From: an uncultured bacterium | GTDB lineage: Bacteria; Acidobacteriota; Thermoanaerobaculia; Multivoradales; J023 | DNA: 64,000 bases | Assembly (NCBI GenBank): GCA_965366625.1 | Contig: CBDUGP010000003.1 | Span: 50,549-114,548, forward strand | Direction: 5' to 3' | Shown here: positions 6,657 through 58,709 of the stretch, piece after piece | Layout of the letters: the number at the start of each line of letters is the position of its first letter | How positions within the stretch are numbered: the stretch's first letter is position 1 | Notes under the pieces: generated by a model | What the model was told of the DNA's origin: nothing | The model's input: only the letters and a program-made list of their open reading frames with translations | Databases searched by the model: none | Translations under genes and position numbers: made by a program

Positions 6657-7493
6657 GTGGTTGAACTCAGGATGCGTGACCTGCTCGAAGCAGGTGTCCA
6701 CTTTGGTCATCAGACCCGTCGTTGGAATCCGAAGATGCGTCGGTATATCTTCGGTAAACGCAACGGGATCTACATTATCGATCTGCAAAAGACCTTGCGT
6801 CGCTTCCACGAAGCTGCAGATTTCGTCTTCCGCCTTGGGCGTGATGGTCGGCGCGTGCTTTTCGTAGGCACCAAACGCCAAGCCCAAGAAGCGATTACCC
6901 AAGAAGCCAGGCGTTGCGGCCAGTTTTACGTCACTCACCGTTGGTTGGGGGGTACCCTGACCAACTATGTGACCATCCGCAACTCCGTCGACCGCTTGAA
7001 AGAGATCGAAGGGAAAATGGACGATGAGTCCACTCCTTTGATCAAAAAAGAGCGACTGCGTCTCGATCGCGAGCGCACGAAGCTGGACCGCAATCTCTCG
7101 GGTATCCGGGATATGGGCGGTTTGCCGGACGCGATCTTCATTGTCGACCCGAAGCGGGAAGCCATCGCGGTGGCCGAAGCCAATAAGCTGGGCATTCCCG
7201 TGATCGCGATCGTGGACACCAACTGCGATCCGGAGTTGGTGGACTATGTGATTCCCGGCAACGACGATGCGATTCGCACGATTCGTCTATTCTCTCGCAA
7301 GATCGCCGATGCATATCTCGCCGGCGCAGGAAAGCTGCAGGAAGAACAGATGATCGCCGGCAAGGATGCTCCTGCCGCGAAGCCTGCTGAGGCTGCACCG
7401 GTAGCAGCTGCTCCTGCTGAGCCGAAAGCGACTCCGAAAGCCGAAGAAGCTCCGGCGGCAGCGGCAGACGAGGCCGTCGCAGCACCGGAATAA
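6657..7493 (+). CDS. rpsB: 30S ribosomal protein S2 (with Ala/Pro-rich C-terminal extension)
   Basis: [19 protein letters not shown] signature; GTG at 6657 preceded by GGGAG; only 13 nt after rpsI stop. Confidence 0.9.
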
Positions 7494-7789
7494 GCGCAGG
7501 GGAAGCTATCGAATCGATCGGCCATCGAGGCCGTTTGGGAAGAGGTCAGACCGGCTTAAGATACGGTCTGGCCTCTTTGCATGTATATAGATATAGAAAA
7601 ACCGAGAAATCCCGTGAGCACCCACGATGTGGATTCGGCAAACGCCGATAAACCTGCAGGTCTCCTTGTTCGCAGATCTTCGATGATCTCATCGAGCTTC
7701 GATCCGACAGGTCCAATACGTTGCCTGGGTGAAATACGAGATAGCTGGGACGAAATCCAAGACGAGAATTGCCCGAGAAGGAGATAAAA

Positions 7790-8443
7790 ATGCAAATCAC
7801 CGCTCAGATGGTGAAAGAGCTTCGTGAGCGCACCAGCGCCGGCATGATGGACTGTAAGAAAGTGCTGCAAGAGTCCGAAGGCGATATGGAGAAGGCCGTC
7901 GACTTGTTGCGCAAGAAAGGTCTTGCTGCGGCCGAGAAGAAAGCCGGGCGAGTGGCGGCCGAGGGTGCCGTTGGTTCTTATATCCACGGAAACGGCTCGA
8001 TCGGTGTGTTGGTCGAAGTCAATTGCGAGACCGACTTCGTTGCTCGCACCGAAGACTTCCAGGGCCTGGTCAAAGATATCGCCATGCACATTGCCGCCGC
8101 GGACCCCGCCTTTGTTCGACGGGAAGAAGTCACCGCTTCCATTCTTGAAAAGGAAGCGGAGATCTACGCCGAGCAGATGCGCGCCGAAGGCAAGCCCGAG
8201 AAGATCATTCCAAACATCGTCAAGGGCAAGATCGAGAAGTACTACTCCGAGGCCTGCTTGCTCGAGCAGCCTTTCATCAAAGATTCGGACAAAACCGTCC
8301 AGCAAATGATCACCGAGAAAGTTGCGAAGATCGGCGAGAACATCCAAGTGCGACGTTTCGCTCGTTTCAAGCTCGGCGAAGGAATCGAGAAGAAGCAGGA
8401 AGATTTCGCCGCCGAGGTGGCGGCGCAAGTGGCTGGTAAGTGA
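7790..8443 (+). CDS. tsf: elongation factor Ts
   Basis: [29 protein letters not shown]... UBA-like N-terminus of EF-Ts; ATG 7790 with GAAGGAGA RBS. Confidence 0.9.
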
Positions 8444-8451
8444 GCCGGCCC

Positions 8452-9171
8452 ATGAGCGGTGATCTCGCCTACCGTCGGGTCCTGCTGAAGCTCTCCGGTG
8501 AGGCCCTGATGGGCGATAAAGGCTTCGGCCTCGATGAGGTCGTGGTCAATCAGATCGCGGACGAGCTGAAAGAGGTCTACAAGCTAGGTGTGCAGCTGTC
8601 GGTAGTCATCGGTGGCGGCAATATCGTTAGAGGGTTGGCAGTAGCAAAGCAAGGTATGGATCGTGTAACCGGCGACCACATGGGAATGCTGGCGACGGTG
8701 ATTAATGCCTTGGCGCTACAGGATGCGCTTGAACGCCGTAATGTGGTGACTCGAGTGCAGACCGCGATCGAGATCAAGGAGGTGGCGGAGTCCTATATTC
8801 GCCGTCGAGCCGTCAGGCATCTCGAGCGTGGGCGGGTGGTGATTTTCGGAGCCGGAACAGGCAACCCGTTCTTCACCACCGATAGCGCCGCCGCTCTTCG
8901 GTCCAGCGAGGTGAAGGCCGAGATCCTGCTCAAGGCCACCAAAGTGACGGGAATCTACAGCGCGGATCCGATGAAGGATCCCGATGCGGAACTCTTGCCG
9001 GAGGTGACATATCAACAGGTGCTGGAGCAGAACTTGCAGTTCATGGATGCCGCAGCCATCAGCTTATGCCGCGAGAACAACATTCCGATCCAGCTCTTCG
9101 ACTTGGCTATCAAAGGCAATATTTTGAGAGTTTTGCACGGTGAAAAGGTCGGATCTCGAGTTCGCGGTTGA
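8452..9171 (+). CDS. pyrH: UMP kinase
   Basis: [10 protein letters not shown] ... [10 protein letters not shown] ... [12 protein letters not shown]; alternative GTG start at 8440 overlapping tsf stop. Confidence 0.88.
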
Positions 9172-9358
9172 CTCACAGGATAGGTAGCAGCTCGGCTTTG
9201 CCGGCAAGGGAGGCGATGAGTAATGCTCGTCGCCTCTTTTCGCGTACAGGAGGCTGGGTCTACGTTGACAGTCAGAGCTTAGCGGGAGAGGATTCGCACA
9301 TCGACACGACCTACCCAGTCGAATTTCCCAGTCGAACGATTTGCTTCAAGGAGTTGTT

Positions 9359-9913
9359 ATGAAAGAGGTCTTCCGCGAAGTTGAGGATCAGATGAAAAAG
9401 GCGGTAGAGCATCTTCACCACGAGCTCAAGACTTTGCGCACGGGCCGCGCCTCGATCGCGATTTTGGATGGAGTTCAAGTCGAATACTACGGCACGCCGA
9501 CGCCGCTCAATCAGGTGGCGAATCTGTCGGTCGCCGATGCTCATCTGTTGACGGCACACCCGTGGGAACCGAGCATGATCGGCCCGATTGAAAAGGCCCT
9601 TCAAACCTCAGGTCTCGGCTTGAACCCCTCGAACGACGGCAAGGTTGTACGGATTCCGATCCCGATGCTGACCGAGGAAAGACGCAAGGAGATGGCGCGC
9701 AAAGCCCATGACATCGCCGAGAGCAGCCGAAACGGCGTTCGCCAGGCCCGTCGGGAGGGAAACGATCAGCTGAAGAAGCTGGAGAAGGATAAGAAGATCA
9801 GCCAGGACGACGAGCATCGGGGATTTGATGAAATCCAGAAGCTTCATGACCACTACATCGAGGAGATGAACAAGATTCTGGCCACTAAAGAGAAGGACAT
9901 CATGGAGGTCTAA
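9359..9913 (+). CDS. frr: ribosome recycling factor
   Basis: 185-aa ORF from ATG 9359 (RBS AAGGAG); RRF motifs (LRTGRASIAILDGVQVEYYG ... IPIPMLTEERRKEM). Confidence 0.9.
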   Translation: MKEVFREVEDQMKKAVEHLHHELKTLRTGRASIAILDGVQVEYYGTPTPLNQVANLSVADAHLLTAHPWEPSMIGPIEKALQTSGLGLNPSNDGKVVRIPIPMLTEERRKEMARKAHDIAESSRNGVRQARREGNDQLKKLEKDKKISQDDEHRGFDEIQKLHDHYIEEMNKILATKEKDIMEV

Positions 9914-9933
9914 AGACCTTTCCTGAGCATTCC

Positions 9934-10665
9934 ATGTTGGATCTTCCCAATCGACGGCAAGTTTTTGGCTTCCATCCTGTCCGTGAGCTGCTTCGGCATC
10001 GACCCCAAGAGGTTCTTGAGGTCGTTTGTAGCGCGCAGCGAGGCAAGCGCCGATCCGAGATCGAAGCCCTGTGTGAACGGCACGGTGTTGGGTTCAGGCC
10101 GGTGCCGGCCACTCAGTTGGACCAAATGGCCGCCGGGCAAACCCATAATGGTTTTGTCGCCGCCGCCGCCGAACAAGCATCGGCGACTCCGAATGGGCCG
10201 GATTCAGAGCTTCTAGTTTTGGTCGAGGATATCCAAGATGCTCGAAACCTAGGGGCTTTGCTGCGGGTTTGCGAAGGTGCCGGGGTGGGCAATGTGATGA
10301 TTCGTGATCGAGGCTCCGCTCCATTGACGGCCGGTGCGATCAAGACCTCTGCCGGAGCGGCAGAATGGCAATCCTTCGAACGAATAACCAATTCTTCGCT
10401 GGAGATAGAACGCCTGAAGGCCGAAGGTTTTTGGGTCTACGGGGCGGACGCCGCCGGCAAGCCTCCGTGGGAGATCGAGCTGACGGGCAAGGTGTTGTTC
10501 TGCGTCGGCGGCGAGTCCGGCGGCCTACGGGAGCGGACGCGAAAAAATTGCGACGAGCTGGTGGGTCTGCCCATGCGTGGTCGGGTCGGATCTCTCAACC
10601 TCGCAACCGCAGCCGCTGCGCTGCTCTATGAGGCAATTCGCCAGCGTTCAATCAGCTCCCAATGA
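9934..10665 (+). CDS. rlmB: TrmH/SpoU-family RNA 2'-O-methyltransferase (RlmB-like)
   Basis: SpoU substrate-binding N-domain and SPOUT motifs (LVLVEDIQDARNLGALLR ... GGESGGL ... GSLNLATAAAALLYE). Confidence 0.7.
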   Translation: MLDLPNRRQVFGFHPVRELLRHRPQEVLEVVCSAQRGKRRSEIEALCERHGVGFRPVPATQLDQMAAGQTHNGFVAAAAEQASATPNGPDSELLVLVEDIQDARNLGALLRVCEGAGVGNVMIRDRGSAPLTAGAIKTSAGAAEWQSFERITNSSLEIERLKAEGFWVYGADAAGKPPWEIELTGKVLFCVGGESGGLRERTRKNCDELVGLPMRGRVGSLNLATAAAALLYEAIRQRSISSQ

Positions 10666-47467: not shown

Positions 47468-48166
47468 TCAAAGTTCGTCGCGCATGAAAGCCGTTGCCAA
47501 CGCGTCGGCGTATTCATTCCACCGGGAACCGTTGTGAGCCTTGATCCACTGCAGGGTGACCCCGGGATGCCGTTGCGATAGTTGAAAGGCTTCTTTCACC
47601 AAGTCGAGGTTTTCCACCGGGCCGGTTTTTCGCCGCCAACCCCGCTTCTTCCAACCCGCGGCCCACTCGTTGATCGTCCGAACACAGAGGTTCGAGTCGC
47701 TCCAGATGTCGACTGCCGCGTCGTCGGGCAGCATGGAGTAGGCGGCGATCAGGGCGCGGAGTTCCATTCGGTTGTTGGTGGTGCGGTCCTCGTGACCGTA
47801 GTCTTGTTGGAGCACCTCGTTGTTGCGCACCCAAACGGCTCCCCATCCACCGGGCCCCGGGTTGCCCGAACATGCTCCATCGGTAAAAACACCGTCGAAT
47901 GGACCGTCAGAATATTTTTCCAAGACGGCGGCCACCGGCAGTAGATCTTCTTTCGGCGAGCCCTTTTGGCGCGTGGATCGACGGGGACGTTTTTGCGCCG
48001 GGCGACCTTTGGTGCCGGAACTCGAGCGCTTCGCCGAAGGTCCACGGCTCTTATCTCTGCATTTCAAACAGATGGTGGGGGTCCATCCGGGATATCTAGC
48101 CAGCACCTCAGTCTTAAGCGTGAATTCGTCGCCGCAGCTTTTGCAGGTATAGGTCTTGACCGTCAT
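47468..48166 (-). CDS. rnhA: ribonuclease HI with N-terminal Cys4 zinc-ribbon and basic linker
   Basis: C-terminal 150 aa is RNase H-like (TDGACSGNPGPGGWGAV ... NNRMELRALI ... DSNLCV ... IKAHNG ... NEYADALA); N-terminal CKSCG ... CLKCR followed by K/R/S-rich linker. Confidence 0.75.
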   Translation of the reverse strand: MTVKTYTCKSCGDEFTLKTEVLARYPGWTPTICLKCRDKSRGPSAKRSSSGTKGRPAQKRPRRSTRQKGSPKEDLLPVAAVLEKYSDGPFDGVFTDGACSGNPGPGGWGAVWVRNNEVLQQDYGHEDRTTNNRMELRALIAAYSMLPDDAAVDIWSDSNLCVRTINEWAAGWKKRGWRRKTGPVENLDLVKEAFQLSQRHPGVTLQWIKAHNGSRWNEYADALATAFMRDEL

Positions 48167-48312
48167 CTCAATTGAATCCTCTCCGAGGTTTTCTCCAAGG
48201 TCGCCGTCTGTTCAAGAACGATTTGCAGGCTAGCCCAACACCACTGAAAAAGCATCCTCGTTGGGGACCGAAGTGTTGCGGGGGCAGTGAGTGCTACCAA
48301 GGGCCATTGGCG

Positions 48313-51300
48313 TCAAGGGGTGTCAGGGGTGTCTTTCAGCATTGGGTCCTGCAGCAAATCCCGGGAACAGTCCGGGCACACGCCATGGGTGAAGGCGGCC
48401 TCGGAATGTTGATCTATATATTGTTCGATGTCTTCCCAATACCCCTCGTCATCACGGATCTTCTTGCAGCATGAACAGATCGGGAGAAGACCGCCCAACA
48501 CTTTGATTTGGGAAAGTTTCTCTTGTACCTGGGCTGCCATTCGCCGATACGCGAAGACCAGCTCGAGATGGGGGCGAAGGCGCGTGACGAGTTCATGGTG
48601 GCCGATGGGTTTGGGCAGGTAGTCGTTGGCACCCAGTGCCAAGCCTTTCTGGGTGTCCTCCGCCTTGGTCTTGGCACTGAGAAAGATGATCGGCAACTGC
48701 CAGAATGAGAATTTGGATCGTAGCTCCCGACAGACTTCATATCCTGAAACTTCGGGCATCATGATGTCCAGCAGCACCAGATCGAATTCTTGTTTTGCGA
48801 TTACGTCCAGGGCCTCCTTGCCGTGGGTGGCACTGGTGACCCGGAAGTCGAAAATGGAGAGGTAGCTGGTCAGAATCAGCAAATTGGTGGGCTCATCATC
48901 GACGGCGAGAATTCGTGCGTGTTTTGCCTCTTCGGAGAGCTGGAGATCGGCAAAAGAATTAGAGCCCATCTGTCGGTTTCGCGATTCCTGCAGCGGTCGA
49001 ACATTGAAGGTTTCTAGGCGCCTTTGCGCAGCAGCGGCGAGGTGCGAGCGTGGCGGCATTTGATCGGCGAGAGTCCCGGCTCTCGATGGCTCTGAGCGAG
49101 CTGTTTGCTCTCTTTGGCCTGAATACACTGGAATCTCGAAGGCAAAAGTCGAGCCTTGTCCCGGACTCGAAGTGACGGCCAAAGAACTGCCGTGCAGCTG
49201 GACGAGGCGATTTGCGATCGTCAACCCCAATCCGGTGCCGCTGTGGGAGCGGATGTCAGAGCCGTCGGCCTGCTCGAAAGCCTGAAGTATTCGCTCAACT
49301 TCTGAGGTTGCGATGCCTACTCCAGAGTCACTGATCTCGATCCGCAACCGTGGGCTCGGGAGGCAAGTCTCATCAGACCCTTGAGTTTGCTTGGGCTTCG
49401 GGCTGGTGGGAGTTGTCGTCGACTGGACCCGAACCTGAACAAAACCGGCATCGGTGAACTTGATTCCGTTCTCCACTAGGTTGAAAACGACTTGGAAGAG
49501 TCGATTTTCGTCCGCGAAAATCGGTGGCAGGTCTTGGGGCACCTCCGTGGTTAAGTGCAGTCCTTTTTGTTGAGCTGCAGGACGGGTCAGGGCCACGACC
49601 TCCTCCAGAATCGATTCCAGTCGACATTGTCTCGGATGAAGCCGGAAGCCATCGTGGCGAATGTTCGAAAAATCGAGAACAGCTTCGACTAAACGGCTGA
49701 GACGATGACCACTGGCGGCGATCATGGAGAGGTCGAGCAGGGCTTCGGCGTGGATCGGCCCGCGCATGCCGTCGATCAACCCCTCTGCCAAGCCGGTGAT
49801 GCCGTAGAGAGGAGTTCTGAGTTCATGGGAGGTGTTGGCAATGAATTCGTCTTTTTGGCGTTCTGCTGCCCGTAGCCTTTGATTGATGGAGCGCTCTCGG
49901 TTGTATCTTTGCTGAGACCAATAGAGCGACGCTGCAACAAGAGCGAGTACAAGAATCGAGTAAAGGCCGTAGGCGGCTGGGCTTCGCCATGGTGCTGGGG
50001 CGACCAGGATCGCCATCGTCGCTGCCTCCTCACTCCAGACCCCATCCGGGCTTCGGGCTTTAACTTGGAATCGGTAACGACCGGGATCGATGTTGGTGTA
50101 GCGGGCTGACCTGTGCTCGGCATCGGTTTCGATCCAGTGCTCGTCGAACCCTTCCAGTCGATAGAGGAATCGGACCTTTTTGGGGTTGGCGAAGTGGAGA
50201 GCGGTAAAGCCGATCTCAAAGGTCCTGTGAAGATGGTTGAGGGCCAAGCTTTCGGTGCCGGAGAGGGCGTGTTGAAGGGGCGAGCCCGGCACACCGATCT
50301 CAACGGGAGCGCCGTTTAGGAGTAGGTGGGTCAGCACGATGGCCGGTGGATGAGGGCTAAATCGAAGATTGCTCGGATCGAAGTAGGTCAATCCACGGTT
50401 GCCCCCGAAGATCATCTCCCCGGTGCTGGACCTCAAGGCAGTTCCGGTAAAAAACACATTGTTGTGGAGACCGTCTTCGATATCGAAGTTGTGAAAAACT
50501 CCGGCTTCAGGATCGAAATGGCTGATTCCGTGCTGAGTGCTGAGCCACAGAGTTGATCTGTCGTCTTCGAGCACTCCGGCGATGGTGCCGCTCGGCAATC
50601 CCTCTCCGACGTTCCAACGTTGGATCTTAGTGTCGTCTTCGCCCCGCTTGCGGATTAATCCGCCGTCGCGCAGGCCGATCCAGAGGTCATTCCTGCTGTC
50701 TTGGTAGAGGGAGAAGACTTCGTCTTGGATATCCGACAAATTTGCCGCCGGCCGGCGAATCCGAAGATCGCGGTCGAGGATCCTCAAACCGCGCGTGGTA
50801 CCGATCCAAATCCTGTCTTTGTGGTCGAGGCTGAGAGCCAGAATTTGACCGGTTTCGAATCGCCGCCGCTCCCTGCCGCTGTCGTCGAGCAGGGAAAGGC
50901 CCGCGAGACTGCCCATCCACAGTCTGTCTTCAGGGTCTTCGATCAGAACTCGGATTCCCTTGGGAGCGGTTGGGCTGAGGTCGGTCGGAGACAGCTGTGC
51001 GGTGATCTGGTCGAATTGGAATAGGCCTTGGGCCGCACCCAACCAGAGCTTCTTGCGACTACGATCAAAGAAAATTGCTTTGATCGAGGTAATGGGGCCA
51101 TCGTCGTCGCTGAGAGGAAAGCGCTCGAATGCTTGACTGGCTGGATGCCAAACGGTTAGCCAGTCGTTGCCGGCGATCCACCAGCGACCGTCAGGCGTCT
51201 CACCGAGCGCGCTGACGTTGGCACTGGCCAAGCCCCAGCGCGAGTCGAGGCTGCGGCGCAAAGTCCTAAATTGCTGCCGATCGAGATCAGTGAGATCCAG

Positions 51301-52335
51301 GCCGTTGCGGGTGCAGGACCAGAGAATGCCGGAGCGGTCGATGTACAGACCGTAGACAGACTTGCTGCTGGGGCCGGTGGGATCCCCATCTCGCATTTCC
51401 ACATGCTGGGCCGAATCCGGCTCCTCGCCGGAAATTGCACCGACCATACGGGCCAGACCTTCTGAGTTGCTGCCGATCCAGAGGTCGTCTCCGTGGCTCA
51501 TCAGGCTGTGAATGTCACCATTTATCGGGCGGGCGTAGAGACGGAATAGGGGAGGCCCTCGGCCCGGGGCAGTGGACCGATAGAGAGAGCCGTTAAAGGA
51601 CCCTATCCACAGATTGCCGAGCGGATCTCGATAGCTGATGGTGGGTCGGTTCTTTTCTCTGGAGAGGCCGGCTGTGTTCCCATGAAGAAAGGGAGAATCG
51701 ATGGATTCTGTGGCGGAGGTGGTTGGGTCGAAAATAAAAAGGCGCCCGTCGGAGGTGGCGAGCAGCAATCCGCTGTCTAAGGCTTCCAAAGTCAGCGGTT
51801 GGAAAGTGGGGAGGGCTACATCTTCGCTACCGAGATCCACCGTGATCGATTCGAAGCGGCGAGCTTGGCGGTTGAGCCGAAGAAGACCTCGATCCGTCAG
51901 GGCCCACAGATCCGACCCAAGCTCACGGAAACGGATGCCGTCGGGAGACAAGCTCAGCGAAAGCGGGATGCGTTCGAATCGTTCGAGCGCAGGGTCGTAG
52001 CGGTTGAGGCCGCGGTTCCTGGACGCGAGCCACAATGAGCCGTTCCGATCTTCGAACGCTCCAAAAGTCTCGTTGGCGCTGACGGTCGTCGGGTCTGCTG
52101 GATCGTGGGCAAAGGTCGTCAGGTGAGAGCCGTCAAAACGCTGTAGCCCACCCTCGGTGCTTATCCAAATGAAACCCTGTCGGTCCTGGGTCAAGTTCCA
52201 GACGGTGCTGTGGGCGAGCCCGTCGTCAGTGCTCAGGTGTCTGAATTGGAGGAATTCGGCTGCTGCGCTGGAGGTCGATACCAGGCAGAGTAAACTCAGA
52301 AAAGCGATGCGGTTTCGTTTGACTTGGTGTCCCAC
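48313..52335 (-). CDS. hybrid sensor histidine kinase/response regulator with periplasmic beta-propeller sensor and Cys-rich C-terminal module
   Basis: signal peptide; repeated propeller/Y_Y_Y-like repeats; TM; HisKA (SHELRTPL) and HATPase (GTGLGLTIANRLV); REC (ILAVDDEPTN ... DLVLLDIMMP ... LSAK); C-terminal LPICSCCKKIRDDEGYW ... HGVCPDC. Confidence 0.8.
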   Translation of the reverse strand: MGHQVKRNRIAFLSLLCLVSTSSAAAEFLQFRHLSTDDGLAHSTVWNLTQDRQGFIWISTEGGLQRFDGSHLTTFAHDPADPTTVSANETFGAFEDRNGSLWLASRNRGLNRYDPALERFERIPLSLSLSPDGIRFRELGSDLWALTDRGLLRLNRQARRFESITVDLGSEDVALPTFQPLTLEALDSGLLLATSDGRLFIFDPTTSATESIDSPFLHGNTAGLSREKNRPTISYRDPLGNLWIGSFNGSLYRSTAPGRGPPLFRLYARPINGDIHSLMSHGDDLWIGSNSEGLARMVGAISGEEPDSAQHVEMRDGDPTGPSSKSVYGLYIDRSGILWSCTRNGLDLTDLDRQQFRTLRRSLDSRWGLASANVSALGETPDGRWWIAGNDWLTVWHPASQAFERFPLSDDDGPITSIKAIFFDRSRKKLWLGAAQGLFQFDQITAQLSPTDLSPTAPKGIRVLIEDPEDRLWMGSLAGLSLLDDSGRERRRFETGQILALSLDHKDRIWIGTTRGLRILDRDLRIRRPAANLSDIQDEVFSLYQDSRNDLWIGLRDGGLIRKRGEDDTKIQRWNVGEGLPSGTIAGVLEDDRSTLWLSTQHGISHFDPEAGVFHNFDIEDGLHNNVFFTGTALRSSTGEMIFGGNRGLTYFDPSNLRFSPHPPAIVLTHLLLNGAPVEIGVPGSPLQHALSGTESLALNHLHRTFEIGFTALHFANPKKVRFLYRLEGFDEHWIETDAEHRSARYTNIDPGRYRFQVKARSPDGVWSEEAATMAILVAPAPWRSPAAYGLYSILVLALVAASLYWSQQRYNRERSINQRLRAAERQKDEFIANTSHELRTPLYGITGLAEGLIDGMRGPIHAEALLDLSMIAASGHRLSRLVEAVLDFSNIRHDGFRLHPRQCRLESILEEVVALTRPAAQQKGLHLTTEVPQDLPPIFADENRLFQVVFNLVENGIKFTDAGFVQVRVQSTTTPTSPKPKQTQGSDETCLPSPRLRIEISDSGVGIATSEVERILQAFEQADGSDIRSHSGTGLGLTIANRLVQLHGSSLAVTSSPGQGSTFAFEIPVYSGQREQTARSEPSRAGTLADQMPPRSHLAAAAQRRLETFNVRPLQESRNRQMGSNSFADLQLSEEAKHARILAVDDEPTNLLILTSYLSIFDFRVTSATHGKEALDVIAKQEFDLVLLDIMMPEVSGYEVCRELRSKFSFWQLPIIFLSAKTKAEDTQKGLALGANDYLPKPIGHHELVTRLRPHLELVFAYRRMAAQVQEKLSQIKVLGGLLPICSCCKKIRDDEGYWEDIEQYIDQHSEAAFTHGVCPDCSRDLLQDPMLKDTPDTP

Positions 52336-52400
52336 TGACGGCGCCCTAACGAAGATGCGCGCGGAGCGTTGTGCTCGGCCTTGCGCGCAGGCCGAGGCAA

Positions 52401-52751
52401 TTAATCGTCAGATTCGGCAAATGAGGTAATGGCGTCGCCTTCGCTCTGATAGACGTCCAGCAACGGTAACAACTGTGATAGCTCCAGGATGCGCAAGACT
52501 TGACCCTTGACGTTCAGCAATCGGGCATCACAACCAAAGCGCCGGGCAAGCTTCACGGAAGCCATCAGCTCGCCGATTCCTGCGCTGTCGATCTTGCTGA
52601 CTTTCGAGAGATTCAGGAGAATTTTCTTCCAATCGTCGGCAACCAGCTGGTTCATCGCCTCTTGGAGCACGGTGTCGCCGATACCGGCCGTCAGGCGGCC
52701 TGTCATGTCGAGGATGATGACGTCCTCAACCTTTCTTAAATCGATTTCCAT
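52401..52751 (-). CDS. STAS-domain protein (anti-sigma factor antagonist-like)
   Basis: 116-aa SpoIIAA-like fold (VIILDMTGRL ... LSKVSKIDSAGIGEL ... LNVKGQVLRILEL). Confidence 0.75.
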   Translation of the reverse strand: MEIDLRKVEDVIILDMTGRLTAGIGDTVLQEAMNQLVADDWKKILLNLSKVSKIDSAGIGELMASVKLARRFGCDARLLNVKGQVLRILELSQLLPLLDVYQSEGDAITSFAESDD

Positions 52752-52851
52752 TGCGATTCCTTTGGAGATCTCAATTTGCCCTGGCTTGGCTTTGTCTTCG
52801 TAGATCTAGAGGCTGTGAATCTTTGGGTTGCCGACCCTCGGGGAGGCAAAA

Positions 52852-54027
52852 TCATAACATGTCGGGGGCACTCAATTCTTCGGCTGTCAAGGAGCAACCA
52901 CGCAGCTGGGCGTCGGTCGCACGGCCTAGGAGGAAGAATCCCGTAGCATCTTTCTCGCTGCGGGGGCTGTCCAAGATGCCGAGATCTTGGGTGATCACAT
53001 GAATCGCGGATCCCACGTTGCTGAGATCGAAGAAAGAAACCAGCCCGGGCTCACCCGCAGGCACCTCGGTCAAAGTTTCGGGCTCCAGCATCCGGACGCG
53101 CATGAACGGCGGTACGACGAAGCGATCCGGATGGCCTCCGCGCAAGACGTCCGTGTAGAAGTGGCCGGTCAGCTCGGTCATGCCGTATTCGCGGACAACT
53201 GCTTCAGAGGGTAGGCCCAACAGCCGATGGACGCGCCCCAGCAGTTCTTCTCTTTGAAGCTCCCGAACTCGGCCTTTAAATCCACCGGTTTCGAAAAGGG
53301 TCGATCCGAGAGGCAGCTCTTTCTTCAGACCGGAGGATTCGAGGGCTTCGAGCCAATAAGACAGCGCAAAAGCTGTGGTCAGCACGGTCCCGGGGCGGCC
53401 CCTCAAGCCGTCGACCCAACCATTTGCCGCGTCGGGGTCGAGGCCTGCATTTCCCAAGGCGACCACCGAGTCGGGGGCCCCGAATTGATTCAAAATGTGC
53501 TCACACATGAAACCCAAGCTCGAATCGGGCACCGTAGTCCGGGACGGCACGAGTGAGAGCATGGGACGGCGGCCGGGAGCGCGGTCGGCCGGCAGGCAGG
53601 CGTCGGCGAAGGTGGCGTCGATAACCTGTCGATAGAGCGCAGGGAAGGGGTGATAATGCACGCTCCGCTCTTGTTGACCGCCGGTGGTTCCGCTAGATCG
53701 GAAGATTTCCCGGGCCTCGGCCGCGTGGAGTTTTTGGTGACGAAATGCCATCACCGGCACCGCCGGAATCCGGGTCCAATCGAACGGGTCTAGGGACTCG
53801 GGAGTGATTCCCCGATGATCACAGAGGCGCTGAAAAGGAAGGACTCGTTGGTATTGGAAAGCGAACACGTCACGGGCCAATGCGTCAAAAGACCCTTCAC
53901 TTCGGGTGATGAAAGCCGAAACGCGTTGTACGAGCTGCTCAGATTCGCGGACTCCGAACTCAGAGTGAGCAGAAGATGGGGTTGGTTTCATCCCGCCATT
54001 TTGACGACTGTGAGCCTGAGTCGACAA
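52852..54027 (-). CDS. adenylate-forming enzyme, LuxE acyl-protein synthetase/PaaK-like (ANL superfamily)
   Basis: FRSSGTTGG (A3-like motif lacking the usual Lys) and EYGMTE (A5 motif); ~390 aa, LuxE-size. Confidence 0.45.
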   Translation of the reverse strand: MSTQAHSRQNGGMKPTPSSAHSEFGVRESEQLVQRVSAFITRSEGSFDALARDVFAFQYQRVLPFQRLCDHRGITPESLDPFDWTRIPAVPVMAFRHQKLHAAEAREIFRSSGTTGGQQERSVHYHPFPALYRQVIDATFADACLPADRAPGRRPMLSLVPSRTTVPDSSLGFMCEHILNQFGAPDSVVALGNAGLDPDAANGWVDGLRGRPGTVLTTAFALSYWLEALESSGLKKELPLGSTLFETGGFKGRVRELQREELLGRVHRLLGLPSEAVVREYGMTELTGHFYTDVLRGGHPDRFVVPPFMRVRMLEPETLTEVPAGEPGLVSFFDLSNVGSAIHVITQDLGILDSPRSEKDATGFFLLGRATDAQLRGCSLTAEELSAPDML

Positions 54028-54182: not shown

Positions 54183-54197
54183 CGGGGAGTGATCGGA

Positions 54198-56837
54198 ATG
54201 GCCAAGCAATCCAAGGCGAAGAAATTAACCCCGGGCGTTCCGGCCCAGGGCGGTGCCCAAACCGCCAAAAAGCCGAGAGGCTCGGGAGCGGTCAAGCTGG
54301 CGCTGATGCTCGTGCTTTTGGTGGCCTTGGTGGCAGGGGTCATCGCCGGAAGCACCACTTGGGCCACCGCGACCGCAAGGGCGGAAACCGCCGGTAAGGC
54401 CATCGATAAGATTCTTAACGGCAGCAACAGGGCTCTCTCGATTCTCCAGCGGCAGCGCTATCTACGACTGAACCTGATTTCCCGTATTTTTCGGACGGAT
54501 CAGGTGCTGACCTCGTATTTAGTTGCCGCCGCCCAGGCCCGAGACGAGGCCGCAATCTTGGCATCGGTGGAGGAATACCAAGACCTACTGACTTTTGATT
54601 TGGCGGTGGTGCTGGATCGCAACGGCGTGGTTTTAACCCGCACCGACGATCGGTCAGCGAGTGGCGAGGACTTGGCCGCGACCCCGTTGGTGGCCGTCGC
54701 CCTCGAAGAGAGCAAGGCGTCAGGGGTGTGGCAGCAGAATGACCAGCTCTACAATGCGCTCGCCGAGCCGCTAGTGCGCCAATTCGAGCTCGTGGGATAT
54801 ATCGCCGTCGCTTATTCAATCAACAACACCCTAGCGGCTGATATCAAGCGCACGGGCGGCGCGGAGATTGTTTTCCTTGCCGAATCTGGGGTTGGGCCTG
54901 CACCTGTCGCGTCGACCCTCGATGACGGCATGTCGCAGGAGCTTGTGGAGGCACTTCGAAAACAAGGGGATGTGCTCGGTTTGGTGATGGAGGAGGGGGA
55001 TGTCGTCGACCGGGTCGAGCTGGAGTTCGGTGGTGAAAAGTGGACGGCGTCCTTGGCACCGTTGAGGGATGCCGCAGGCGGCTCGGTGGGAGCTGCCATT
55101 GCCCTGACTTCCTTGGGTGACACCCGGCAAAGCTTCAACAACATCCAGAAGGCCACTTTGGTCGCGGGCGGACTCTCTCTCCTGGTGGGAGCCATTTTGG
55201 CGTTCGCCTTGGCCAAATGGGTTTACCGGCCCTTTACTCGCCTGGCCGACGCCGTAACCCAAGGGGTCCAAGGCCATTGGGATGTCCAAATGCCGACCGG
55301 CAGTGGGGACGCCAAACGCATCTCGGAAGCGGTGAGAGATCTCTTCACCCAGCTCAGGGAGAAGGCCGCGGTGGAATTCGTGGTCGGCCGGGTGTCTCGG
55401 CTGCTGCCCGAACCCGCGAAAGAGAGCGCTCAAGGCGTGGCTAAGGCCCAGCATCTTTGTGTGGTCGGGGTTGAGATGCGCCGCTACGCCGATCCTAAGG
55501 TCGGCTACGACGCCGAGGAGAATATGGCCCGTCTGGATCGTGACGTCCAAAAGATTTCCACCTCCACGCGCACCCAAAAAGGTGAGGTGGTGTCGATGTT
55601 CGGGCATCGAGTTTTGCTCAGCTTCGAAGGTGAGCATTGCACCTGGCGGGCCCTGTGCGCGGCCACCGAGATCATGCTCACCCTGTCGGAACGGGACAGC
55701 GTGTTCGACGAACCCAGCCCGCCGGTGGTTGCCCTTTCTAGTGGCCCGATGATCAACGGCACCATCTCGTCCGGCCTGGTGGTGGCGGGTGTTCCGGTTC
55801 AGATTCTCGAAAGCTTGATGCGTGAGGCGTCACCCGGCGGGCTTTACTTCTCGAAACAGGTTTATGCGGAGTTGGGCGAACTCTTCCAGCGGGCTCAGGT
55901 GCAAGTGAAGGGGCAGCGGGGAATCCTCAGTCCGCAACCTCTGTATCTGGTCGACGCCGAATCGGCGAGTCGAATGACCGGAGTCCAAGCCTTGACCGAC
56001 GGTGGGGACGGAGGCGAGGGACGAGGTCTTTCAGATCTGCGGCGCGGTGTGCTGCTGGCGGGTCGCTTCGACATGCTCGACGAGCTGGGCGCGGGTCGGA
56101 TGGGAATTGTTTGGAAGGCCCAAGATCGCGACTTGGGCGATTTGGTCAGTCTCAAGATGCTGCGTCCGGAAGTGATGCAAGACGCCGCGCTCTTCGAACG
56201 GTTGAAGAGGGCGGTGGCCAAGGCGCGCTCGATCCGCCACCCCAACGTCTTGAGCGTCTTGGATTTCGGCGAGGCCGAGCGCCTGCCGTATATCGAAATG
56301 GAATTTGCCCGCGGATTCACATTGGCCTATCTCCTGGAGCAAGCACGCCAAGTGCCGGTGGTGGCCGGGGTCCGATTCGCGCGCGAAATCGCCCGTGGGC
56401 TGGCCGCCGCCCACAATCAGCAGCTCATGCACAGCGGGCTCAAACCGGAGAACATCCTAATCGACACCTTGGGTTTGGTGAAGGTGATGGACTTTGGTCT
56501 GGGTATGCCGGTAAGAGCCGGGGCCGCCGTGGAAGCGCCTGGATACCTCGCTCCCGAGCAGCTGGAGGCGCGCGAGCCCGATTCCCGCGCCGATTTCTTC
56601 AGCTTTGGGGCGGTGGTGTATTCCATGTTGACCGGAAAACTGCCTTACCCGGGGTCCACCTCGGACGAGATCCGTCGCAAGATGGCCGAAGGCGGTCCTG
56701 AGGTCCCCACCTCACTAGTGGCTGAGATCCCACCCAAACTGGAAGAGATTCTCTTGAAATGCCTCCAGATCACACCGGACCAACGATACGCGTCGGCCGA
56801 CGAACTCGTGGCGGATTTGGAAGACATCTCCATCTAG
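54198..56837 (+). CDS. membrane receptor: extracytoplasmic sensor-TM-HAMP-degenerate cyclase-homology domain-Ser/Thr pseudokinase
   Basis: two TM segments flanking ~300-aa sensor; cyclase-like motifs with catalytic residues substituted (GEVVSMFG, VQILESLMREASPGGLYFS); kinase domain with GxGxxG, VSLK, DFG, APE but HRD replaced by HSG (MHSGLKPEN); alternative GTG start 54189. Confidence 0.7.
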   Translation: MAKQSKAKKLTPGVPAQGGAQTAKKPRGSGAVKLALMLVLLVALVAGVIAGSTTWATATARAETAGKAIDKILNGSNRALSILQRQRYLRLNLISRIFRTDQVLTSYLVAAAQARDEAAILASVEEYQDLLTFDLAVVLDRNGVVLTRTDDRSASGEDLAATPLVAVALEESKASGVWQQNDQLYNALAEPLVRQFELVGYIAVAYSINNTLAADIKRTGGAEIVFLAESGVGPAPVASTLDDGMSQELVEALRKQGDVLGLVMEEGDVVDRVELEFGGEKWTASLAPLRDAAGGSVGAAIALTSLGDTRQSFNNIQKATLVAGGLSLLVGAILAFALAKWVYRPFTRLADAVTQGVQGHWDVQMPTGSGDAKRISEAVRDLFTQLREKAAVEFVVGRVSRLLPEPAKESAQGVAKAQHLCVVGVEMRRYADPKVGYDAEENMARLDRDVQKISTSTRTQKGEVVSMFGHRVLLSFEGEHCTWRALCAATEIMLTLSERDSVFDEPSPPVVALSSGPMINGTISSGLVVAGVPVQILESLMREASPGGLYFSKQVYAELGELFQRAQVQVKGQRGILSPQPLYLVDAESASRMTGVQALTDGGDGGEGRGLSDLRRGVLLAGRFDMLDELGAGRMGIVWKAQDRDLGDLVSLKMLRPEVMQDAALFERLKRAVAKARSIRHPNVLSVLDFGEAERLPYIEMEFARGFTLAYLLEQARQVPVVAGVRFAREIARGLAAAHNQQLMHSGLKPENILIDTLGLVKVMDFGLGMPVRAGAAVEAPGYLAPEQLEAREPDSRADFFSFGAVVYSMLTGKLPYPGSTSDEIRRKMAEGGPEVPTSLVAEIPPKLEEILLKCLQITPDQRYASADELVADLEDISI

Positions 56838-56945
56838 CCGGTTGAAGGTAGACGGGAGCGTGTCGCCTGCGACGCGCGCAAGCCATCGACGAGAAATTTC
56901 AATTTTTTCGCGCAGGAAATTCCACGTCTAAGTGTTTCAAGAGCT

Positions 56946-57557
56946 GTGACGCAGTCTGCCGAAGTCCTGCCGGACCCCGACCTCCCGATTTTGCTTCGCG
57001 TTGCCGATGGGGACGTGGAGTCGTTCGGTGTGTTGGTGGAACGTCATCAGGCGAGGCTGTGGCGATTGTGCGAGCGAATGTTGGGCAGCGCTGAGGACGC
57101 CAGTGAGGCGACCCAAGAAGTCTTCCTCAAGGCCTACCGTGGCTGCTCCGCCTTTCGCCCGACCGCCAAGGTGTATACGTGGCTCTATCGGATCGCCGTC
57201 AACCATTGTTTAAACCGCTTGCGGCGCCGAAAGTTGGCGAGCTTCCTCTCGTTGGCGGAGCTGGCACCGGCAGCCAAGGGCGACGATGGAACAGGCGACC
57301 ACCGCAGAGAGGCGGAATGGGATCCGGCGGACTCCGGACCCGACGCGGAGCGTCGCCTAGCGGACCGTCGACGTTGGGCTGTAGTGAGAGCGGCGATCGA
57401 TCGCCTGCCGGTGAATCAACGGGCGGTTTTGGTCTTGGCGAAGCTCGAAGGGTTGTCCTATCGGGAGATTTCCCAGGCCTTGGGCATCACGGAGAGCGCG
57501 GTAGAAAGCCGGTTGGTGCGTGCCATGCGCCGGTTGCACGCCCTCGAAACTCAGTAA
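56946..57557 (+). CDS. ECF (group IV) RNA polymerase sigma factor
   Basis: sigma-70 region 2 (EATQEVFLKAYRG ... VYTWLYRIAVNHCLNRLRRRK) and region 4 (NQRAVLVLAKLEGLSYREISQALGITESAVESRLVRAMRRL). Confidence 0.85.
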   Translation: MTQSAEVLPDPDLPILLRVADGDVESFGVLVERHQARLWRLCERMLGSAEDASEATQEVFLKAYRGCSAFRPTAKVYTWLYRIAVNHCLNRLRRRKLASFLSLAELAPAAKGDDGTGDHRREAEWDPADSGPDAERRLADRRRWAVVRAAIDRLPVNQRAVLVLAKLEGLSYREISQALGITESAVESRLVRAMRRLHALETQ

Positions 57558-57567
57558 GGGGTTGGAC

Positions 57568-58086
57568 ATGACCGTTAGAGATCAAGAGCCGGCACAGCTG
57601 ATGCGCTATTTGGCCGGTGAACTCGACGAGCCGGCTCGACGGCAACTCGAGCAGCGGCTCGAAAGCGAAACTCGGCTGCGTGATGCCCTAGGAAGATTGG
57701 AAACCACGTGGGCCGCACTTTCACCGCCGAGCCCCGAGTCGGAAGCGCCCGATCAAACCCTTGCGATCATGGCGAAGATTCGGCGCGAAAGCGCCCAGGT
57801 CGGCGGTGAACTCGCTTGGTCTGCGGCCCCGATGTGGGTCAAAACGGGATCTTTGGCCTCGCTTGCCGCCGGTTTGTTGATCGGCGTGTTCATAGCTCCA
57901 GAGCATGCGACGAGCCTAGATCCTGGCCGCTCGGGGATAGTGGAACCGCCGTGGGGCTTCGAGGCCGAGCGGCTTTCGACAGACGACCTCTTTCAAACGG
58001 CGGAGCCGACCTCAGCGGATCTATATTGGCGAGCTCTGGAAGCCTCCAGCGGCCGATTGGATGAAGAGCAGGAGGACGGATCGTGA
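57568..58086 (+). CDS. putative anti-sigma factor (single TM)
   Basis: immediately downstream/overlapping ECF sigma; short cytoplasmic N-domain, TM (LASLAAGLLIGVFI), small extracytoplasmic domain. Confidence 0.55.
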   Translation: MTVRDQEPAQLMRYLAGELDEPARRQLEQRLESETRLRDALGRLETTWAALSPPSPESEAPDQTLAIMAKIRRESAQVGGELAWSAAPMWVKTGSLASLAAGLLIGVFIAPEHATSLDPGRSGIVEPPWGFEAERLSTDDLFQTAEPTSADLYWRALEASSGRLDEEQEDGS

Positions 58087-58709
58087 GCCGTCAGATGGTG
58101 AATAAGCGATGGGGGTTGGTTTGGGTGCTGATGCTGTCGGTGGGTCTCAATTTCGGCTTGCTGGTCAGCTGGATGGTCGCGAAATCCAGGAGCGAACACA
58201 CGGATCCGGCAGTTGAGCAAACCGAAGGTGATCCGGGTCATGGATCTGAGGGCGTCGCCGGGACCTTGCAAAGATCGGATCTCGGCATAGCACCCAGGCG
58301 CCTGGAACGTATCGTCGGCCGGATGGCCGATGAGTTGGGATTGGAGGGTGAGAGAAGAGAGGTCTTCTTGGGCGTCCAAGGAGAATTTTTTCATCGATCC
58401 GTGGCGGGACGAGATCGTCTCAAAGCAGCCCGGGCCGGGTTGCGAAGGGAGTTGACTGCATCGTCGCCCGATCGAGCTCGGGCGGAGCATTGGGCTGGGG
58501 AGCTGGGAAAGGCTCAGTCGGAGCTGGAGGAGGCCTTTGTCGCCAATTACTTTTCCACCCGCGAGCTGTTGGATCCGGAGCAAGACAGGAGATTTCGCCG
58601 ATTCATGGGCAGAATCCACAAGATGCGTCGCCAGCTGATGGAGCAGGGCGAGACGCCCAGGGAACCGTTCCGTCCTAGACGACCCAGGCGAGGCAGACCT
58701 AGGGGATGA
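58083..58709 (+). CDS. Spy/CpxP-family (LTXXQ-like) periplasmic stress protein
   Basis: signal/TM then helical protein with LDPEQDRRF (LTXXQ-like) motifs and basic C-terminus; co-operonic with ECF sigma/anti-sigma. Confidence 0.5.
   Translation: MSRQMVNKRWGLVWVLMLSVGLNFGLLVSWMVAKSRSEHTDPAVEQTEGDPGHGSEGVAGTLQRSDLGIAPRRLERIVGRMADELGLEGERREVFLGVQGEFFHRSVAGRDRLKAARAGLRRELTASSPDRARAEHWAGELGKAQSELEEAFVANYFSTRELLDPEQDRRFRRFMGRIHKMRRQLMEQGETPREPFRPRRPRRGRPRG

Follow-up and report, generated by a model that had tools for sequence, protein, structure and literature searches.

We analysed a 64-kb stretch of DNA from an uncultured acidobacterium (contig CBDUGP010000003.1, hereafter the window), in which four genes lie on the minus strand at positions 47468-54027, just 3' of the block carrying ribosomal protein genes, rpoA and rplQ. 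In order, they encode a LuxE-like enzyme, a single-domain STAS protein, a hybrid sensor histidine kinase with a Cys-rich C-terminal tail and an RNase HI (Table 1). The best matches to the window were metagenome-assembled genomes of Thermoanaerobaculia/Holophagales. A sequence-only reading had proposed that the four genes form one signalling module. All four open reading frames (ORFs) it had listed are present, the motifs it quoted (SSGTTGG, YGMTE and the kinase tail sequence) were found where expected, and searches with hidden Markov models (Pfam, NCBIfam) backed its domain calls for each gene. Its description of the cluster as tightly packed holds in that the genes are close; they do not overlap, however, and are separated by gaps of 100, 65 and 146 bp. 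As hairpins are found 3' of the stop codons of the LuxE-like, STAS and kinase genes, co-transcription of the four genes is possible but an operon is not assured. No Rfam family was found between 44 and 59 kb of the window, and PADLOC returned nothing but generic kinase-domain matches, to the Ser/Thr kinase of the divergent flank.

Table 1. Features of the cluster and of its divergent flank (positions in the window).
Feature	Position	Strand	Basis or remark
LuxE-family acyl-protein synthetase	52852..54027	-	Pfam LuxE PF04443, PDB relative 7xc6_E
P-loop-like SSGTTGG	53677-53697	-	LuxE-like motif
Catalytic K251 codon	53275-53277	-	LuxE-like
YGMTE motif	53173-53187	-	LuxE-like
R369	within 52918-52932	-	LuxE-like
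Acyl-Cys C378 codon	52894-52896	-	LuxE-like, in RGCSL
GC-rich stem-loop	52828..52849	-	abuts LuxE-like stop codon; folding of the LuxE-STAS spacer
SpoIIAA/RsbV-type single-domain STAS, 116 aa	52401..52751	-	PF01740
Phospho-acceptor Ser56 codon	52584-52586	-	STAS, DSxGxG motif
Hairpin CTCGGCC-N9-GGCCGAG	52374..52396	-	abuts STAS stop codon; read from sequence
Hybrid sensor histidine kinase, 1340 aa	48313..52335	-	Reg_prop, Y_Y_Y, HisKA, HATPase_c, Response_reg (Pfam)
Kinase N-terminus: signal/transmembrane segment, then periplasmic propeller and Y_Y_Y sensor	49996-52248	-	second transmembrane segment after sensor
HisKA, His837	49657-49857	-	kinase
HATPase_c	49126-49512	-	kinase
Receiver, Asp1190	48577-48912	-	kinase
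Linker helix and Cys4(His) zinc-type module	48367..48561	-	kinase C-terminal tail
Linker helix	48493-48561	-	kinase tail
Cys4(His) module (C1287, C1290, H1317, C1320, C1323)	48367-48486	-	kinase tail
Terminator-like hairpin and T-run	48246..48273	-	between kinase stop and RNase HI start; consensus scan
RNase HI, 232 aa	47468..48166	-	PF00075, 3e-34, 118.5 bits
N-terminal CxxC-x21-CxxC zinc ribbon, residues 8-36	48059-48145	-	RNase HI
RNase H domain	47489-47890	-	RNase HI
Divergent context unit	54189..58709	+	Pfam
dCache_3-Hanks Ser/Thr kinase, 882 aa	54189-56837	+	Pfam
ECF (extracytoplasmic function) sigma factor	56946-57557	+	Pfam
Anti-sigma-like protein	57520-58086	+	Pfam; overlaps ECF ORF
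Metal_resist (CnrX/CpxP-like) protein	58083-58709	+	Pfam

The LuxE-like enzyme and the STAS protein

We looked at how the LuxE-like gene is accompanied in related genomes. A census of 80 species-representative genomes and 80 metagenome contigs, completed by individual look-ups, yielded 165 distinct loci. In 96 of them the LuxE-like gene is followed, on its own strand, by luxC (PF05893) and in 11 by a STAS gene, while no locus has both (0/165); LuxC was matched neither in the 64-kb window nor in any STAS-type flank. The 11 STAS-type loci belong to distinct lineages, with pairwise LuxE identities of 52-74%, and their flanks vary on both sides, the succession from the LuxE-like gene to STAS being the sole constant. 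The adjacency noticed in the window therefore recurs across lineages with reshuffled surroundings: the LuxE-like and STAS genes form a pair that is truly conserved, with STAS standing in the position of LuxC. On the same strand after STAS we found RNase HI in four loci (L001, L085, L092 and L093), the hybrid kinase followed by RNase HI in the window and a different kinase in L094, while in L084, L008 and L037 there is nothing or a convergent unrelated gene. The spacers between the two genes measure 76-130 bp in STAS-type loci; hairpins like that of the window spacer also occur in L001 and L084, and the spacers are otherwise unconserved. The STAS-type loci all belong to a single basal group of the LuxE tree, deep and with long branches, in which the LuxC-type loci L045 and L061 are interleaved. 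The metagenome scan returned mostly soil LuxC-type loci and gained just one short STAS-type contig. In the LuxC-type locus L083, the luxE-like gene and luxC are parted by an inserted glyoxalase-like gene and toxin-antitoxin pair of the HicA/HicB type (9115-9973), so that the junction between LuxE and its partner tolerates insertions.

The enzyme itself matched PF04443 at 2e-15 and 57 bits (cut-off 24.9), whereas the Pfam AMP-binding family stayed below threshold on this protein. Its start is ambiguous, as a TTG at 54027 gives 391 aa and an ATG at 53991, chosen by the gene caller, gives 379 aa. When a profile of 27 homologues was searched against the whole PDB, the sole match was the LuxE chain 7xc6_E, near full length (E=7e-21). 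K251, R369 and C378 align with Lys238, Arg355 and Cys364 of LuxE and are invariant across the 27 homologues. In the LuxE structure, Lys238 and Arg355 form the adenylation/thioesterification pair, Cys364 is the acyl acceptor within a flexible C-terminal TRxxKGCxLS motif, and the usual C-terminal subdomain of ANL enzymes is missing (PMC9157457). The window protein has 13 residues beyond C378 and likewise no ANL C-terminal subdomain. Considering the LuxE-only PDB match and the aligned, invariant catalytic residues, its sequence places the window enzyme among the true acyl-protein synthetases of the LuxE family, a subtype of the adenylate-forming enzymes. It scored 66.8 bits against the equivalog model of bioluminescence LuxE, NF052244, and did not reach the cut-off of 550. 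The acyl-Cys arm RGCSL is identical whether a LuxC or a STAS gene follows. We also considered a C-terminal extension, SxPDM[LV], as a signature of STAS-type enzymes and rejected it, as it is confined to the nearest relatives of the window.

The STAS protein matched PF01740 at 3.7e-15 and 56 bits (cut-off 22.6) and scored 53.3 bits against TIGR00377, whose cut-off is 53.45. Its Ser56 aligns with the phospho-acceptors Ser58 of SpoIIAA and Ser56 of RsbV. The sequence RIDSAGIGEL, including Ser56, is invariant in 7/7 aligned LuxE-linked STAS proteins, so that the check for a phosphorylatable residue suggested by the sequence-only reading turned out positive. On the contrary, its proposal that acyl or adenylyl modification replaces phosphorylation of STAS found no support: the phospho-acceptor is canonical, the single Cys (Cys74) is Ser in 2/7 aligned orthologues and no alternative acceptor is conserved. 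Since STAS is devoid of a conserved alternative nucleophile, there is no sequence ground for acylation over phosphorylation. Genes for an RsbW-like kinase, a PP2C phosphatase or an Hpt protein were found neither among the neighbours nor among the scanned non-ribosomal ORFs of the window, and the flanks of related loci contained no RsbW-type kinase or PP2C. The STAS gene of L092 (1920-2277) is split in two ORFs by a frameshift in an assembly of 4x coverage, probably a sequencing error and not a pseudogene. In Pseudomonas, three orphan hybrid sensors act through HptB and HsbR on HsbA, whose phospho-site is also Ser56, and once phosphorylated, HsbA binds the cyclase HsbD, a non-sigma enzyme (PMC5085249). 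As hybrid kinases upstream of STAS switches are thus documented, the earlier view that a STAS gene beside a hybrid kinase is atypical was overstated.

The hybrid kinase and its C-terminal module

The motifs of the kinase are all present, namely the H-box with His837, the G-boxes, Asp1190 and the conserved Lys. Searches with the exact sequence and with its 90%-identity cluster recovered only assemblies of the same species with the same layout; the closest other homologues are 31-34% identical, and neither the sensor nor the tail was found in related loci. The gene is absent even in three loci that keep the synteny STAS-RNase H-PBP-L17-RpoA or STK-LuxE-STAS-RNase H, and in L001, L092, L093 and L085 RNase HI comes straight after STAS, 26-62 bp away where the distance was measured. 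Because it occurs only in the same species and is absent in syntenic relatives, the kinase is a lineage-specific recent insertion between STAS and RNase HI; loss everywhere else is less parsimonious. The four genes are therefore not co-conserved as a module, the neighbourhood comparison that the sequence-only reading had named as decisive having shown this for the kinase. A foreign origin was considered as well, and base composition gave no sign of it (GC 0.557-0.587, compared with 0.55-0.61 in the flanks).

One other STAS-type locus has a hybrid kinase next to STAS. In L094, the LuxE-linked STAS gene is followed at a distance of 41 bp by the gene of a PAS-PAS-HisKA-HATPase-REC protein (7598-9517, plus strand); this protein shares 23% core identity with the window kinase, has no such tail and is absent from the nearest relative of that locus, L084. 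L173 was rejected as a third case, since it has an ordinary separate kinase/regulator pair, parted from the LuxE-like gene by other genes.

The tail that follows the receiver had been described as probably metal-binding, with no function assigned to it, and our results support this description, metal binding being suggested by invariant cysteines. A profile built from nine sequences and searched exhaustively against 1.84 billion representatives found the module in 24,406 representative clusters (50% identity), 20,048 of them at E<=1e-10. Figures on motif and architecture come from the best ~150 matches, a set favouring two-copy and short proteins: in this set, the C-x2-C-x29-C-x2-C span measures 37 residues in 160/160 instances, and 87% end no more than 25 residues from the C-terminus. 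In two-copy proteins one copy often has no His while the four Cys are never lost, and therefore the site is most likely Cys4. A recurrent architecture of ~500-550 aa (P0133-P0168) combines a MASE6 membrane sensor with two zinc modules, one usually without the His.

A Pfam census of 145 module carriers found PAS in ~46, MASE6 in 21 and REC in 11, further fusions being to GAF, HAMP, Cache, PocR and propeller/Y_Y_Y domains; a kinase core occurs in the window protein alone. These carriers pair sensor domains with the module and have no other output. Other propeller kinases carry, C-terminal to the receiver, an AraC helix-turn-helix (HTH), Hpt, GGDEF, cyclase, PP2C or HATPase_c_2 domain; the window kinase gave no match to HTH_AraC after its receiver, and the zinc-type module fills this slot. 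Moreover, P0290 aligns to residues 10-841 and then 1270-1337 of the window kinase, being the same sensor and juxtamembrane helix fused straight to the module with neither kinase nor receiver. On the basis of the C-terminal placement, the sensor fusions, the post-receiver slot and the architecture of P0290, the module occupies an output position and is probably driven through the helix.

Known families did not account for the module. The best Pfam match of the window tail was DUF3039 (E=0.098) and NCBIfam gave none; 100 modules searched against Pfam gave DUF3039 at E=0.001 and Zn_ribbon_HMPTM at 7e-4 as the best hits, all below gathering scores and limited to the knuckle. A profile search of PDB sequences with the module returned nothing relevant. 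The AlphaFold2 model of the module reached a pLDDT (predicted local distance difference test) of 82.6, and its structural matches were insignificant. Stand-alone module proteins were seen in three heterogeneous contexts: with a sigma-54 activator and MamS, with a propeller protein, and with a response regulator-Hpt pair and a hybrid kinase. The gene context of P0290 was uninformative on the role of the module, and when plasmids were searched with the module by tblastn, the sole match was an unannotated remnant next to a GAF gene disrupted by an insertion sequence. InterPro and CDD entries aside, we found no description of the module in the searchable literature. We provisionally regard it as a very large zinc-type output-domain family for which no description was found.

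RNase HI and the divergent flank

The last gene of the cluster encodes an RNase HI that scored 140 bits against the equivalog model NF001236, under its cut-off of 160. The motifs FTDGAC, NRMEL, WSDS and EYADA are present, corresponding to the catalytic acidic residues D10, E48, D70 and D134 of the E. coli enzyme. A Lys/Arg-rich basic linker (residues about 40-90) connects the N-terminal ribbon, for which Pfam zinc-ribbon matches were weak, to an intact RNase H domain. The N-terminus is a zinc ribbon and not the hybrid-binding domain of some RNases HI; its region is 91% identical in L001, 82% in L092 and 51% in L093. RNase HI is linked 3' to STAS in five lineages and is probably a housekeeping enzyme.

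Upstream, about 71-75 of 85 loci have the trio of ECF sigma factor, anti-sigma-like and Metal_resist genes beside the LuxE-like gene, and in the group of the window the dCache_3 Hanks kinase is interposed between the two. The majority of STAS-type loci contain this kinase, as do some of the LuxC type. PknD and Rv0516c of Mycobacterium tuberculosis offer an analogy for a Hanks kinase as candidate kinase of STAS Ser56. The trio resembles a CnrH-Y-X-like unit that could regulate LuxE with its LuxC or STAS neighbour. A dyad search for an ECF-type promoter common to the LuxE-like gene and the ECF operon gave strong enrichments, which were confounded by the conserved coding sequence of the small gene p122. 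In L083, a 122-aa protein with no Pfam match (6803-7171, minus strand) is encoded between the ECF sigma and LuxE-like genes. It holds the equivalent position in about 38 loci, is absent from the window, and is 79-97% identical across Thermoanaerobaculia loci, well above the conservation of the adjacent genes (about 50-55% for LuxE).

Interpretation and comparison with known systems

We favour, with a little better than even confidence, the interpretation that the region brings together three units, the LuxE-STAS pair, the inserted kinase and RNase HI, instead of forming one four-gene module. In the first unit, the LuxE-like enzyme would adenylate a fatty acid and load the acyl group onto its own Cys378, as expected by homology because the catalytic Lys, the Arg and the acyl-Cys are kept. 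In most relatives, LuxC, encoded by the next gene, would take the acyl group from the enzyme, while the deep-branching lineage has no adjacent luxC but a STAS gene in that place. By analogy with the binding of phospho-HsbA to HsbD, STAS is most likely a phosphorylation-dependent binding partner, which would either gate the LuxE-like enzyme itself or connect it with regulators encoded nearby. The candidates for phosphorylating its Ser56 are the Hanks kinase next to the pair and a kinase of the RsbW type with its gene at another site. The second unit, the species-specific kinase, would be a self-contained two-component system in one polypeptide: the propeller/Y_Y_Y sensor may trigger autophosphorylation of His837 and transfer to Asp1190 of its own receiver, which could act through the linker helix on the 40-residue Cys4(His) zinc-type module as presumptive output. 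This module probably serves interaction or dimerisation, stabilised by zinc and driven via the preceding helix. The zinc-ribbon RNase HI, probably housekeeping, makes up the third unit.

Several points weigh against this composite interpretation. The short intergenic gaps leave room for read-through transcription, and the data come entirely from metagenome-assembled sequences. We infer both the binding or regulation of the LuxE-like enzyme by STAS and the metal binding of the module, the latter from invariant cysteines. Genes for LuxC, an RsbW-like kinase or PP2C may lie elsewhere in the genomes, our scope being the flanks and the 64-kb window. Moreover, a kinase core is found within 4 kb 3' in 2/9 STAS-type loci against 1/94 other loci, the latter being L173 (Fisher p≈0.02, with small counts and a test chosen after seeing the data). 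With a second, unrelated hybrid kinase lying directly 3' of STAS in L094, the window kinase may be functionally tied to STAS and not an incidental insertion. In view of the L094 kinase and of STAS at the luxC position, STAS may have a regulatory link with the kinase or with LuxE.

Such a tie is the core of one alternative, in which interchangeable kinases feed a phosphorelay that sets STAS phosphorylation, as in HptB-HsbR-HsbA or RsbK-RsbY-RsbV, with the LuxE-like enzyme as target. Two independent recent insertions, in the window and in L094, would have brought unrelated hybrid kinases on the same strand immediately 3' of STAS, each missing in the closest relative (74% identity in LuxE), and control of a STAS partner switch by hybrid kinases is documented (PMC5085249). 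No Hpt, receiver-PP2C or RsbW-like intermediary was found nearby, however, most STAS-type loci have no kinase, and the window kinase already has its own receiver and output module; we consider this alternative unlikely. We find similarly improbable that no functional link exists among the genes, the LuxE-STAS adjacency being inherited synteny in one clade and STAS serving a partner switch encoded elsewhere. The confinement of every STAS-type locus to one basal group, the unconserved, hairpin-bearing LuxE-STAS spacers and the long-range synteny of Thermoanaerobaculia around the locus (ECF unit, Trx, MauE, UvrA-like gene) would fit such a scenario. Within that group, however, both flanks are reshuffled and the LuxE-STAS pair alone stays constant at 52-74% identity, and the interleaving of L045 and L061 among STAS-type loci suggests that the partner gene switched rather than drifted.

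The single four-gene module originally proposed, in which acylation or adenylylation of STAS by the LuxE-like enzyme would replace phosphorylation, with input from the hybrid kinase, appears highly unlikely. It draws on the LuxE-STAS adjacency in 11 lineages, on the mutual exclusion of STAS and LuxC, the normal acyl acceptor of LuxE, and on the presence of a hybrid kinase after STAS in two lineages. However, the kinase is missing in 9/11 STAS-type loci and RNase HI in 6/11, the genes are parted by hairpins, the RGCSL arm is unchanged between LuxC- and STAS-type enzymes, and STAS keeps the canonical phospho-Ser56, its single Cys being unconserved. About as improbable is a partner switch controlled by lipidation and not by phosphorylation, in which, in lineages with no adjacent luxC, the LuxE-like enzyme would hand the acyl chain from its Cys378 arm to STAS, for example to the invariant Ser56, with interchangeable hybrid kinases captured nearby as inputs.

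If confirmed, a STAS protein in the luxC position beside an intact LuxE-type synthetase would tie regulation by partner switching to an enzyme that activates lipids, a connection of which we found no description and which is directly testable with two small proteins. Assigning a function to the tail module would annotate tens of thousands of one- and two-component signalling proteins that now end in nothing recognisable.

Hybrid two-component systems of the Bacteroides type unite a propeller/Y_Y_Y sensor, kinase, receiver and AraC HTH in one polypeptide. The window kinase shares with them the sensor architecture, the full kinase core, the receiver and a fused output after the receiver; it differs in that this output is the 40-residue Cys4(His) zinc-type module and not an AraC DNA-binding domain. 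In archaea, HalOD2 and TackOD1 are Cys-rich response-regulator output domains of unknown function (PMC5847659), and like the window module they are small, CxxC-based predicted zinc modules in the output position after a receiver. The archaeal domains and the window module showed no similarity in sequence, and the spacing differs, as HalOD2 has 20-25 residues between its CxxC pairs and TackOD1 has 11 Cys, whereas the window module has a fixed 29; moreover, the latter is bacterial, far more abundant and mostly carried by PAS and MASE6 sensors rather than receivers. Two CxxC knuckles are also shared with zinc ribbons and treble clefs (DUF3039, zf-C4pol, Zn_ribbon_HMPTM) and with the Zn(Cys)4 site of PerR/Fur, and the same 29-residue spacing is found in papillomavirus E6/E7 and in the CxxC-x29-CxxC of GspE, as a resemblance and not homology.

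With LuxC-LuxE of Photobacterium phosphoreum (7xc6), the window enzyme shares near-full-length homology, the lack of an ANL C-terminal subdomain and the Lys, Arg and acyl-Cys residues, and most family members in this bacterial class have luxC as the next gene. The window and the other STAS-type loci differ in having no luxC, a STAS gene following instead, and the window has no luciferase genes, an acidobacterial host and a score far under the LuxE equivalog cut-off. The STAS protein, in turn, resembles SpoIIAA/RsbV and the HptB-HsbR-HsbA pathway of Pseudomonas aeruginosa, which share with it a single-domain STAS with phospho-Ser 56 in DSxGxG (PMC5085249). It differs from these systems in having no adjacent RsbW-type kinase, PP2C, Hpt or sigma/anti-sigma pair of that type, and in having an adenylate-forming enzyme as constant neighbour. 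HptB-HsbR-HsbA nonetheless provides precedents both for hybrid kinases upstream of STAS and for a phospho-STAS protein that binds a non-sigma enzyme, HsbD.

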